DNA from: Desulfobacterales bacterium
Lineage (GTDB): Bacteria > Desulfobacterota > Desulfobacteria > Desulfobacterales > UBA5852
Reading direction: 5' to 3'
NCBI GenBank assembly: GCA_963674885.2
Contig: CAXXEA010000003.1
Location: 3,477,511-3,509,510, forward strand
Length of the DNA: 32,000 nucleotides
The translations under genes were made by a program, and so were the position numbers. Below the pieces are notes generated by a model that did no database searches, was not told where the DNA came from, and saw only the letters and a program-made list of their open reading frames with translations. Each line of letters starts with the position of its first letter. Position 1 is the first letter of the stretch. Below, in pieces: positions 15,334 to 17,389 of the stretch.

Positions 15334-15915
15334 TCAGCGCGGATGTTTCCAGCGGATGGGCGAAACGTAAGCATCCCCTTGCTGCCACATGCCGGTGCGG
15401 GTTTCCCGGGCCTCGGTTTCGGTTGCAAGGTAGGGCGACTTGGCAAAGCCGTCGGGTGTGCGCCCACGGTAAACCTCAGCCAGGCCGGCTTCGATCATGG
15501 CATGATTGATATCGCGGGATTCGCAATACACCACGGCCAGCACGCGGTGATAGCGGTCTTCGCCATAGGCGACGAGGGTGACCGTTCGATTTAGGATAAG
15601 GTCGGCCAGGTGTCGCTGGGCTAAACGGCTGTACGGCTGACCGGGTTCGCCTTTGCCCTTTGAGGTTTCCGGGGCGTCGATGCCCAGGAGACGAATCACT
15701 TTGCGCCCGCCGGCACCGGATACCAGGATGGTGTCCCCGTCATAAACCCGGAGGACGCGATAGGGATCGGAGGGCGCGGCGCAGACAGTCCAAAATTCTC
15801 CGGTGGCGGCGAGCCACAGGAAACCCACCGCGACCAGAACAGCATAGCGCCGGAACTGCCGCTGGAGGGGATGGACTCGGTCAGCAGCAGCCAATGTCCC
15901 CGCAACAGGCGGCAT
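15334..15915 (-). CDS. Thermonuclease (staphylococcal nuclease, SNase) homologue with N-terminal signal/anchor
   Basis: SNase motifs: VYDGDTILV, IRLLGIDAPET, INHAMIEAGLAEVY. Hydrophobic N-terminus: RRYAVLVAVGFLWLAATG. The start is uncertain (ATG 15915, ATG 15945/15963 or TTG 15897). All options overlap the 3' end of hgcB. Confidence 0.8.
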   Translation of the reverse strand: MPPVAGTLAAADRVHPLQRQFRRYAVLVAVGFLWLAATGEFWTVCAAPSDPYRVLRVYDGDTILVSGAGGRKVIRLLGIDAPETSKGKGEPGQPYSRLAQRHLADLILNRTVTLVAYGEDRYHRVLAVVYCESRDINHAMIEAGLAEVYRGRTPDGFAKSPYLATETEARETRTGMWQQGDAYVSPIRWKHPR

Positions 15916-16171
15916 CTTTCCCCTTGATCCAGGTTTGAATGACATAGGCGGCGCACCCGACACCCGGTTGAACGGTCAGGGCGTTCTGTTCACAGTTGCG
16001 CGCGCAGGCGCCGCATTCCATGCAGCGATCCCTGTTATGAATTCTGGCTTGCCGGCCTTCCATTGTGAATACGCCCTGGGGGCATACCAGGGTGCAAGTC
16101 TGGCAGCCATTGCAGCGGGAGGCGTCATAGGTCAAGGTGCTGACGCCGGGTAAATAGATCATCTCACGCAT
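15881..16171 (-). CDS. hgcB: HgcB, 2x[4Fe-4S] ferredoxin of the mercury methylation pair
   Basis: 96 aa. Two CX2CX2CX3C motifs: CNGCQTCTLVCP and CMECGACARNCE (the C-M/I-E-C-G-A-C HgcB signature). There is an isolated Cys at residue 73 and a C-terminal Cys-rich tail, AACCGDIGCC. The gene lies 18 nt downstream of hgcA, with a GGGAGA SD. Confidence 0.85.
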   Translation of the reverse strand: MREMIYLPGVSTLTYDASRCNGCQTCTLVCPQGVFTMEGRQARIHNRDRCMECGACARNCEQNALTVQPGVGCAAYVIQTWIKGKDAACCGDIGCC

Positions 16172-16189
16172 GTTTTCATGTCTCCCGGT

Positions 16190-17389
16190 CTATCCTGTCC
16201 AGACCGCTACCAGCCATCCGACCGTACCGATGCCCATCGTCATGACCTGGGCCGGCAGGGCCAGCCGCATTTCTTTTTCCACACCGGAGGGGGAGGTGAA
16301 CGGTGTCGCTCCGGTGAAATTCATGGCCAGAAAAGAACTTGTCGCCATGGTCATCAGTGCCAGGGCGGTTGCCAGTCCGGCGGCCATCGGCGAATATAGG
16401 ATGAGATGGCCCAGTCCCGCAACCGCCAGACCGATAGTGGCCCCCTTGACGGCAAACGCTTTTCCCGGCAGCCATGGAAGCAGAATCGGTGCCAGAACCG
16501 CGCCGCCGATGATCCCGAGGCCTCCCGCGACAATCCCCAGCAGCATGAGCCTAACGACCGACGGTAGCGTTCCCTTGCCCAACATTCCCACGACCAGCGC
16601 TATGACCAAGACAGCGCCTGTGGCCCAGGCGCCGGGTTTGAGGGCGGCACTGATTTCCATCGGAATGAGGATCATCCGCTCCCTCAGTGTGAAACTGATC
16701 CGCCGCATGGCCGGCGCGGGGTTTTTAGGATTTTTGAGGAAGGCCTTCAAGTCGCTGGCACGAACAGGCCCCCAGATCACCCGAAAGCCGGTCCGCTGCC
16801 GGATGGCATGGCCGGCTACGCCGCTGGCGCCCAGTTGCGGCAGCACCAGCCGTCGATGGGCTACGACCTGATCGAGGCGGGTCGTGGTCAACCGGTGAAC
16901 CAGTTCATCTGTCGCAAAGGTGCCTTTGCCTGCCGCGCACCAGACATTGACGCCGTTCGTATCCAAAACAAGAATCCAGGCATCCAGATCTGTCAACTCC
17001 GAGCGAAGGGCATCCAGCGACAGTTTGTAGTTGGCCGTGACCAACACCGGTGCCTGTTGATCCGGTTGGCCGACAGCATAGAGCCCGGGATCCACCGCAT
17101 ATTGATTGCGCTTTAGCCCCAAGCGGACTTTCAATCCGCCCCATCGGTCCCGCAGGGTCAGCCGGGTGCTCAGTCGGGGCACCGGCCCCACAGCAGAGGA
17201 GACTTCCCCCATAAGGCTTTGATGGCTAAAGATTTTCCTTTCAGACAAGGTTTTGGCGGTTGGCCCAGCCGGTGGCACAGGGCAGCAGGCATCCGTCGCA
17301 TGCGTCGGAACTTTGGACAGGATCCCAAGCCCGGGCTTGGTGGCGGAAGGATTTGGGGTGGTTAAGGTTCCATTGCGGTTTGGGGTCAT
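16190..17389 (-). CDS. hgcA: HgcA, corrinoid protein of the mercury methylation pair
   Basis: Cap-helix signature GVNVWCAAGKG, with the Cys codon at 16937-16939. A CFeSP-like soluble domain is followed by a C-terminal region of ~5 hydrophobic helices. ATG 17389 is preferred (AGAGG 5 nt upstream, 19 nt after the arsR stop). The track ORF starts at GTG 17431, which has no SD. Confidence 0.9.
   Translation of the reverse strand: MTPNRNGTLTTPNPSATKPGLGILSKVPTHATDACCPVPPAGPTAKTLSERKIFSHQSLMGEVSSAVGPVPRLSTRLTLRDRWGGLKVRLGLKRNQYAVDPGLYAVGQPDQQAPVLVTANYKLSLDALRSELTDLDAWILVLDTNGVNVWCAAGKGTFATDELVHRLTTTRLDQVVAHRRLVLPQLGASGVAGHAIRQRTGFRVIWGPVRASDLKAFLKNPKNPAPAMRRISFTLRERMILIPMEISAALKPGAWATGAVLVIALVVGMLGKGTLPSVVRLMLLGIVAGGLGIIGGAVLAPILLPWLPGKAFAVKGATIGLAVAGLGHLILYSPMAAGLATALALMTMATSSFLAMNFTGATPFTSPSGVEKEMRLALPAQVMTMGIGTVGWLVAVWTG

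Follow-up and report, generated by a model that had tools for sequence, protein, structure and literature searches.

The mercury-methylation genes hgcA and hgcB lie next to each other on the minus strand of a 32,000-nucleotide stretch of a Desulfobacterales genome (contig CAXXEA010000003.1 of GenBank assembly GCA_963674885.2; "the window" below means this whole stretch). The reading that we favour, and to which we give a probability of a little under nine in ten, is that this is a canonical, intact hgcAB pair, that it makes up the downstream end of a unit, arsR-hgcA-hgcB, switched by an ArsR-family regulator, and that it uses the methylation chemistry of HgcAB from Pseudodesulfovibrio mercurii ND132 (DND132_1056/1057). 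To our knowledge hgcAB is the only genetic determinant of microbial methylmercury formation, and a complete pair therefore marks its bearer as a likely producer of this food-web neurotoxin; for this organism, production of methylmercury is predicted on good grounds. Thousands of hgcAB pairs are known and the identification of one is routine. The genes were first noticed in a reading of the bare DNA letters (the original prediction, below), which called the system known rather than new, and the pair is indeed a standard and ordinary instance of it.

Both proteins are recognized by curated NCBIfam equivalog models. HgcA scores 418.8 bits against NF040863 (HgcA_corrinoid; curated cut-off 275, E = 1.4e-125) over profile positions 1–323 of 325, and HgcB scores 112.2 bits against NF040864 (HgcB_ferredoxin; cut-off 99, E = 7.8e-33) over positions 2–93 of 93. 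Against the model of the fused HgcAB-like proteins (NF043039, cut-off 285) they reach only 199.5 and 56.6 bits, respectively, and against the CFeSP gamma-subunit model (cut-off 306) HgcA reaches 79.2 bits and matches profile positions 322–448 of 450 only. The consensus protocol for these genes includes NVWCAAGK among six accepted HgcA cap-helix motifs, of the general form N(V/I)WC(A/S)(A/G/S)GK with a strictly conserved Cys, and asks of hgcB a C(M/I)ECGA motif and a location on hgcA's contig (PMC10087281). The window pair carries NVWCAAGK and, at HgcB residues 50–55, CMECGA, and it qualifies at "high stringency" for both genes. The original prediction had taken the pair for the genetic signature of Hg(II) methylation and had proposed a search with profile hidden Markov models as a check on this; with both equivalog cut-offs passed, that diagnosis holds.

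The original prediction also named what would speak against it, first of all a gene that groups with CFeSP/AcsC-type or non-methylating hgcA-like paralogues; the ferredoxin beside it would then be unrelated. A case can be made for this, in that the sole Pfam match of HgcA is PF03599 (CdhD; residues 111–231 in the numbering of a 413-amino-acid form discussed below), a PDB sequence search with HgcA returned CFeSP entries only (2h9a, 4c1n and 4djd; about 125 residues, E = 1e-11) and no HgcA entry, and public databases label the two proteins "hypothetical protein" and "PreA subunit". The family scores already refute it. The large subunit of CFeSP (AcsC/CdhE, of the Wood-Ljungdahl pathway) does share with HgcA a corrinoid-binding, Rossmann-like region that corresponds to the CFeSP C-terminal domain (HgcA residues ~110–234, 413-residue numbering), but the likeness covers only those ~125 residues; the N-terminal [4Fe-4S] and TIM-barrel portions of CFeSP are missing from HgcA, which has five predicted transmembrane helices instead, and in the PDB alignments the CFeSP sequences have a residue other than Cys opposite the cap-helix Cys151 of HgcA. 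The ferredoxin, for its part, passes the HgcB equivalog model and has Cys73 and the CC tail. We therefore regard a paralogue as hardly credible.

The HgcAB-like fusions (NF043039; Pyrococcus furiosus and the OP8/OP9 type) are built of homologous corrinoid and ferredoxin parts, but they are single proteins and gave no Hg methylation in culture, whereas here there are two genes separated by 18 nt and both products score below the fusion cut-off. Comparison with ND132 was made through the equivalog models, through published residue numbers and through a structural match: the top match in a Foldseek search of the PDB with an AlphaFold2 model of HgcA is the ND132 HgcAB integrative model 9a0b_A (E = 1.4e-21, 46% identity, 331 columns), followed by CFeSP corrinoid domains (2ycl, 2h9a and 4djd) with root-mean-square deviations of 1.4–1.8 Å over about 125 columns. 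The window locus is like that of ND132 in having separate genes, hgcA followed by hgcB, that encode a cap-helix Cys, a CFeSP-like domain and five transmembrane helices. The pair is thus a canonical and intact hgcA-hgcB, two separate genes that are neither an HgcAB-like fusion nor a CFeSP.

Proteins identical to the window HgcA (P0001) and HgcB (P0124) are present in NCBI, JGI, ENA and Logan, including the metagenomes JGI 3300072073, JGI 3300076598, SRR22808086, SRR22808091 and SRR22808092, where they are called "hypothetical protein" or "NAD-dependent dihydropyrimidine dehydrogenase PreA subunit". These labels are uninformative because Pfam detects only generic domains, PF03599 in HgcA and nothing other than Fer4 in HgcB, and surveys based on annotation would therefore overlook this methylator. 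Among the matches listed, the nearest labelled relatives are from Desulfobacteraceae and Deltaproteobacteria metagenome-assembled genomes, with HgcA identities of 87% and 62%.

The six-frame list of open reading frames (ORFs) gives hgcA as 16190..17431 on the minus strand, 413 amino acids when read from a GTG at 17431. The ATG at 17389, in the same frame, is preceded at 5 nt by the ribosome-binding site AGAGG (in the minus-strand reading), it is the start in the public gene calls of P0001 (399 amino acids, 100% identical to the window HgcA), and the N-terminal Met of this 399-residue form is kept in an alignment of 85–87% identical homologues. The GTG start was dropped on these grounds and since it would overlap the upstream gene, arsR, by 23 nt; hgcA is thus taken as 16190–17389, and residue numbers refer to the 399-residue protein unless otherwise stated. 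The hgcA stop codon, TAG at 16190–16192, is followed after 18 nt by the hgcB ATG at 16171, and in 77 of the 80 related loci compared, all at species level, hgcB comes after hgcA. A 233-amino-acid ORF antisense to hgcA (16170..16871, plus strand) was rejected as a shadow ORF of a GC-rich coding region.

In the AlphaFold2 model of HgcA (mean predicted local distance difference test score, pLDDT, 75; 26 homologues as input), residues 1–56 are disordered with pLDDT below 50, and the α/β domain that superposes on the CFeSP corrinoid domain contains a short helix, residues 149–155, that holds Cys151. This is where the cap-helix Cys belongs, which excludes the second refuting outcome named in the original prediction, a Cys out of register with the cap-helix Cys; the NVWCAAGK residues are invariant across 26 aligned HgcA homologues, and the Cys151 codon is TGC at 16939–16937. 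Cys151 is the predicted cobalt-thiolate ligand, a role taken over from the equivalent Cys93 of ND132 (PMC7305189, PMC11588087). Beyond this domain the model has C-terminal helices at residues 235–270, 275–306, 312–331, 337–356 and 369–398, and these coincide with a hydrophobic stretch (residues ~250–399) in the Kyte-Doolittle profile. The original prediction, which had a 399/413-residue ORF with this motif and this Cys codon, a corrinoid-protein-like domain and then about five hydrophobic helices after residue ~250, is borne out in each of these respects by the ORF list, the motif script, AlphaFold2, Foldseek and hydropathy.

HgcB, correctly foreseen as a 96-residue ferredoxin 18 nt downstream, has two CX2CX2CX3C cluster motifs, CNGCQTCTLVC at residues 20–30 and CMECGACARNC at residues 50–60, and all eight ligand cysteines (20/23/26/30 and 50/53/56/60) are present; the first motif is followed by Pro. 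A lone Cys73 stands 13 residues past Cys60, an offset shared by 68 of 77 relatives, and the tail has cysteines at 89, 90, 95 and 96. In ND132 HgcB, Cys 20/23/26/60 hold one cluster and Cys 50/53/56/30 the other, with Cys73 and Cys94/95 in addition (PMC7305189), so that nine of these cysteines have the same numbers in the two proteins and both end in a C-terminal Cys pair; ND132 HgcB differs in having only two tail cysteines, where the window protein has four, and a second motif that ends in CP and not CE. The ND132 residues that the original prediction gave as functionally tested, HgcA Cys93 and HgcB Cys73 plus a C-terminal CC, agree with that work.

In the ND132 enzyme the two [4Fe-4S] clusters of HgcB reduce the HgcA cobalamin to Co(I), S-adenosylmethionine (SAM) methylates Co(I) with release of S-adenosylhomocysteine (SAH), the cap-helix Cys thiolate ligates the methyl-Co(III) and the methyl group goes to an Hg(II) bis-thiolate; methylation in vivo requires Cys73 and the C-terminal Cys pair of HgcB (PMC11588087, PMC7305189). 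The methyl donor of characterised HgcAB is SAM and not methyltetrahydrofolate (PMC11588087). From the orthology and the conserved residues we infer the same chemistry for the window pair: HgcA would be a membrane-anchored corrinoid protein with the Cys151 thiolate bound to cobalt, HgcB would be the ferredoxin that reduces the corrinoid to Co(I), Co(I) would take a methyl group from SAM with SAH released, and the Cys-bound methyl-Co(III) would hand the methyl group to an Hg(II)-thiolate to give methylmercury. Cys73 and the flexible Cys-rich tail of HgcB are thought to handle Hg(II) and methylmercury. Binding of cobalamin with a Cys-thiolate ligand, and use of SAM, are thus likely properties of this pair by analogy with ND132.

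The original prediction described hgcAB itself correctly and overlooked what lies immediately upstream, an ArsR regulator gene and its putative operator. The arsR stop codon is 19 nt before the hgcA ATG on the same strand (an alternative arsR ATG at 17732 would give 107 amino acids; the public call has 105). The protein scores 67.1 bits against NF033788 (cut-off 55), also matches PF01022, and has cysteines at positions 46, 48, 85, 87 and 95; a CxC-N36-CxC pattern is present in 103 of 120 ArsR homologues. Of the 80 related loci, 19 have an arsR homologue as the gene immediately before hgcA. ArsR2 of ND132 (DND132_1054, F0JBE8) is likewise a small ArsR/SmtB winged-helix protein whose gene precedes hgcAB in the same orientation; arsR2 and hgcAB are transcribed together, the regulator reacts to As and SAH, and its cysteines are at 47/49/86/88 (bioRxiv 10.1101/2022.10.17.512643). 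Likened by this description, the two regulators have four-Cys CxC...CxC arrangements of identical spacing (46/48/85/87 in the window ArsR). They differ in that gene number 1055 lies between arsR2 and hgcA in ND132, where the window has only the 19-nt gap, and in that close ArsR2 homologues were found in Desulfovibrionaceae only (Gionfriddo et al. 2022, bioRxiv 10.1101/2022.10.17.512643), whereas the window regulator is from a Desulfobacteraceae-like lineage and is accompanied by a conserved operator. Co-transcription with hgcAB and de-repression by As/SAH have been shown for ND132 and BerOc1 only. In the window the gaps of 19 and 18 nt, and the lack of predicted internal terminators other than one weak site inside arsR, support co-transcription, which suggests that arsR-hgcA-hgcB is one transcription unit with hgcAB as its distal part.

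The putative operator is a perfect palindrome whose core, TATCGT-N6-ACGATA at 17750–17767, has no second match in the window (0.03 matches expected by chance), and one arm of it is the −10 hexamer, TATCGT, of a sigma-70-like promoter. TTGAC is found at a fixed distance from the palindrome in 20 of 20 aligned arsR-hgcA loci, and the consensus of their upstream regions is TTGACa-N17/18-TATCGT-N6-ACGATAAA. The 584,645 bp of the 80 hgcA loci contain the shorter core ATCGT-N6-ACGAT 17 times, where composition or shuffles predict 0.5; all 17 occurrences are just upstream of arsR, none is elsewhere in these loci, and the 61 loci without arsR have none. The two arsR-bearing loci that lack the exact core have near-variants of it. 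The spacing of the palindrome also fits the consensus "ATC-10 nt-GAT" of SahR/SamR, which are ArsR-family proteins (PMC4239095). The ND132 preprint makes no mention of an operator, palindrome or promoter (bioRxiv 10.1101/2022.10.17.512643), and in our literature searches, whose coverage was incomplete, we found no published description of one for hgcAB.

The following model is based on where the palindrome lies and how well it is conserved, on its occurring exclusively with this class of ArsR, and on the ND132 expression data. The genes arsR, hgcA and hgcB, possibly with the nuclease-like gene that follows them, would be transcribed from TTGACA-N17-TATCGT, with a transcription start predicted near 17755; the four-Cys ArsR would repress them by binding TATCGT-N6-ACGATA over the −10 box, and would leave the DNA on binding a thiophilic effector, most likely As(III), with SAH also implicated in ND132. 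We note that TATCGT can be read on the plus strand as well, in the other arm of the palindrome, 18 nt after a second TTGACA (17726–17731) that overlaps the arsR start codon. This TTGACA-N18-TATCGT is a promoter-like site that points at a divergent rubrerythrin/ferritin-like gene, so one operator might serve both directions.

The same promoter-operator arrangement is found in front of arsenic-resistance operons. A metagenome scan with TTGAC-N16-20-TATCGT-N6-ACGATA matched at least 120 contigs, and those among the matches listed, to which all of the following counts refer, were classified by their downstream genes. In seven the pattern is followed by arsR and then hgcA, and in six (L116, L126, L131, L135, L139 and L164) by hgcA directly with no arsR between; 23 have arsR and then arsenic-resistance genes and nine have ars genes directly. 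Eight have arsR and then too little or other sequence, one of which (L112) ends in an HgcA N-terminal fragment, three have arsR nearby in another orientation, six are too short to call and 58 fall into none of these classes. Thus arsR, hgcA or ars genes are downstream or adjacent in 56 of 114 assessable contigs. The operons behind the shared operator include arsM, arsD-arsA, acr3 and arsI, in one order arsR-arsM-arsD-arsA-acr3, and the genes were confirmed by scores above the curated cut-offs (in parentheses): ArsM 273–355 bits (263), ArsD 128.5 (90), ArsA 778 (650), Acr3 465 and 384 (282.8) and ArsI 149.5 (116). The ArsRs of these operons are 42–57% identical to the window ArsR and are like it in having TTGAC-N(16-20)-TATCGT-N6-ACGATA upstream, the winged helix-turn-helix core PLAQSTVSQHLK and, mostly, the CxC-N36-CxC cysteines; they differ in the arsenic-resistance genes downstream and in forming a separate clade, since a rough neighbour-joining tree, drawn without support values, groups 26 of 27 hgc-linked ArsRs together and apart from the 22 ars-linked ones.

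The 58 unassigned matches were considered as further members of such a regulon and rejected, their downstream ORFs being heterogeneous (small ORFs like those of gut mobile elements, aminotransferases, integrases); they look like chance matches or unrelated promoters. Six contigs from gut and other metagenomes (L090, L093, L152, L153, L155 and L183) have a near-identical promoter, TTGACAAAAC(A/G)..TATCGTATATATACGATA, upstream of a conserved 96-amino-acid ORF (MVTRKE..TPQRIANRKYEEKNK..) and no ArsR, ars or hgc genes near it; this promoter is probably an unrelated, coincidental pattern match, possibly of a mobile element.

The operator shared by hgcAB and ars operons is of modest novelty and is offered as a lead, not as a result. 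It bears on the possibility that this is a true hgcAB pair whose selected role is not mercury, which would be an arsenic or thiophilic-metalloid response or another corrinoid/SAM reaction such as halomethane dehalogenation, with Hg methylation as a side reaction. We think this unlikely, though far from negligible. The operator and the class of ArsR are those found upstream of arsM, arsD-arsA, acr3 and arsI operons, and the six contigs with the operator directly before hgcA point the same way; in ND132, As induces hgcAB and the knockout is more sensitive to As(V); Hg itself does not act as an inducer of hgcA; and a 2026 preprint reports that heterologously expressed HgcAB dechlorinates CCl4. 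Against it, the 32-kb window contains no ars or mer genes, arsR is confined to 19 of the 80 related hgcA loci, and the hgc-linked ArsRs are a clade of their own in the rough tree, so that their effector may have diverged. A role other than mercury is in any case a matter of purpose and not of activity, and it is compatible with a capacity for methylation.

More specifically, we raise as a tentative suggestion that hgcAB is part of the arsenic-sensing wiring in this lineage and in about one in four of the relatives that have hgcA, through the four-Cys ArsR clade and the ars-type operator, that arsenite or some other thiophilic metalloid turns methylmercury formation on, and that the native role of HgcAB may be metalloid handling. 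An operator common to hgcAB and to genuine arsenic-resistance operons gives the question of how hgcAB is controlled, and for what purpose, a concrete DNA site and a regulator, and knowledge of it could sharpen the prediction of methylator activity, for example under arsenic co-contamination.

Several observations weigh against a functional, ND132-like and ArsR-switched methylation system in this organism. The presence of hgcAB is no guarantee of methylation, transcript level predicts the methylation rate poorly in ND132, and Hg uptake matters as well. HgcB exceeds the NF040864 cut-off by 13 bits only, a modest margin, and its residue 61 (codon 15991–15993) is Glu, giving a motif that ends in CE where 71 of 77 relatives have Pro. 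HgcA has ~58 more N-terminal residues than ND132 HgcA, which puts the cap Cys at 151 and not 93. Lastly, the case for the putative binding of ArsR to TATCGT-N6-ACGATA comes from comparative genomics only. In our judgement neither the N-terminal extension of HgcA nor the CE motif of HgcB argues against function.

Another reading is an intact pair that is effectively silent, because ArsR represses it tightly, it is hardly expressed or the cell does not take up Hg(II), and that gives no measurable methylmercury under natural conditions. Known methylators express HgcAB at extremely low levels, methylation rates are decoupled from hgcA transcription, the −10 box is inside the putative repressor site, and Pyrococcus furiosus, with its fused homologue, did not methylate. 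We nevertheless hold a silent pair to be improbable: isolates whose HgcA has one of the listed cap-helix motifs are capable of Hg methylation (PMC10087281), and the cited non-methylators carry the fused form, whereas the window locus is unfused.

The N-terminal extension of HgcA carries a Cys pair, Cys35-Cys36, that is absent, together with the extension, from HgcA of ND132 and similar proteins. Of 121 close HgcA homologues, 113 have a CC pair somewhere upstream, and in 110 the distance from the pair to the cap-helix Cys is 115–116 residues. At the species level 37 of 79 loci have such a pair 112–119 residues before the cap Cys and ~22 others have a short, ND132-like N-terminus. The pair is often in the context CCGxPPGP, and in some lineages there are several CCPP repeats. 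Vicinal Cys pairs are typical Hg(II)-handling motifs, and if the arsenic wiring suggested above is real, an N-terminal Cys-Cys would fit a metal(loid)-delivery role. The literature searched, again with incomplete coverage, yielded no description of an N-terminal Cys-rich region of HgcA. We regard this conserved pair as a lead, not an established result.

Table 1. Features of the hgcAB locus and its immediate surroundings (window positions).
Feature	Position	Strand	Description	Basis
Staphylococcal-nuclease-like gene	15334..15915	(-)	193 aa in public calls, hydrophobic N-terminus	PF00565, 86.5 bits
hgcB coding sequence	15881..16171	(-)	96 aa; 2x[4Fe-4S] ferredoxin, Cys73, Cys-rich tail	NF040864, motif script
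hgcA coding sequence	16190..17389	(-)	399 aa from ATG	ORF list, NF040863, identical public protein P0001
HgcA transmembrane domain	16196..16687	(-)	Five predicted helices	AlphaFold2 secondary structure, Kyte-Doolittle
HgcA corrinoid-binding domain	16694..17221	(-)	CFeSP-like, residues ~57-232	PF03599, PDB sequence matches, Foldseek
HgcA cap-helix motif	16925..16948	(-)	NVWCAAGK, residues 148-155 (399-aa numbering)	Motif script
HgcA Cys35-Cys36 codons	17282..17287	(-)	In N-terminal extension, predicted disordered	
ArsR/SmtB-family regulator gene	17409..17726	(-)	105 aa, ATG at 17726	NF033788, PF01022, public gene call
Putative ArsR operator	17747..17770	none	Perfect palindrome ATTTATCGT-N6-ACGATAAAT	Inverted-repeat search
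Sigma-70-like promoter of arsR-hgcA-hgcB	17762..17790	(-)	TTGACA 17790-17785, N17, TATCGT 17767-17762	Promoter scan, 10/12 matches
Rubrerythrin/ferritin-like gene	17963-18442	(+)	Divergent from arsR	Pfam domain

Downstream, the staphylococcal-nuclease-like gene runs in the same direction as hgcB and overlaps its final 35 nt, and no terminator-like site is predicted between the two. A homologue (78% identity) follows hgcB in only one of the 80 related loci, that of the closest relative (L005). The gene is possibly co-transcribed with hgcAB, and its membership of the unit is uncertain. On the other side, public calls of the divergent rubrerythrin/ferritin-like gene differ, one giving 232 amino acids from 17744, inside the palindrome, and the other 159 from 17963; of the two, the shorter agrees with the Pfam domain. 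The putative leader of this gene contains a terminator-like hairpin at 17791–17808 (plus strand).

Rfam and tRNA scans of the window gave no match, so that a riboswitch for cobalamin, SAM or SAH is absent from the surroundings of hgcA. At 0.60, the GC content around hgcAB differs little from the mean of the window, ~0.56. The remainder of the window is ordinary chromosomal content, with no Wood-Ljungdahl genes. It includes an O-methyltransferase gene with a dimerisation domain (19372–20373, plus strand), ~2 kb from hgcA beyond a tetratricopeptide-repeat protein gene, and rnfC-, rnfD- and rnfG-like genes at 28622–31856 (plus strand), none of them linked to hgcAB in other loci; the rnf genes would suit an anaerobe with an Rnf complex.

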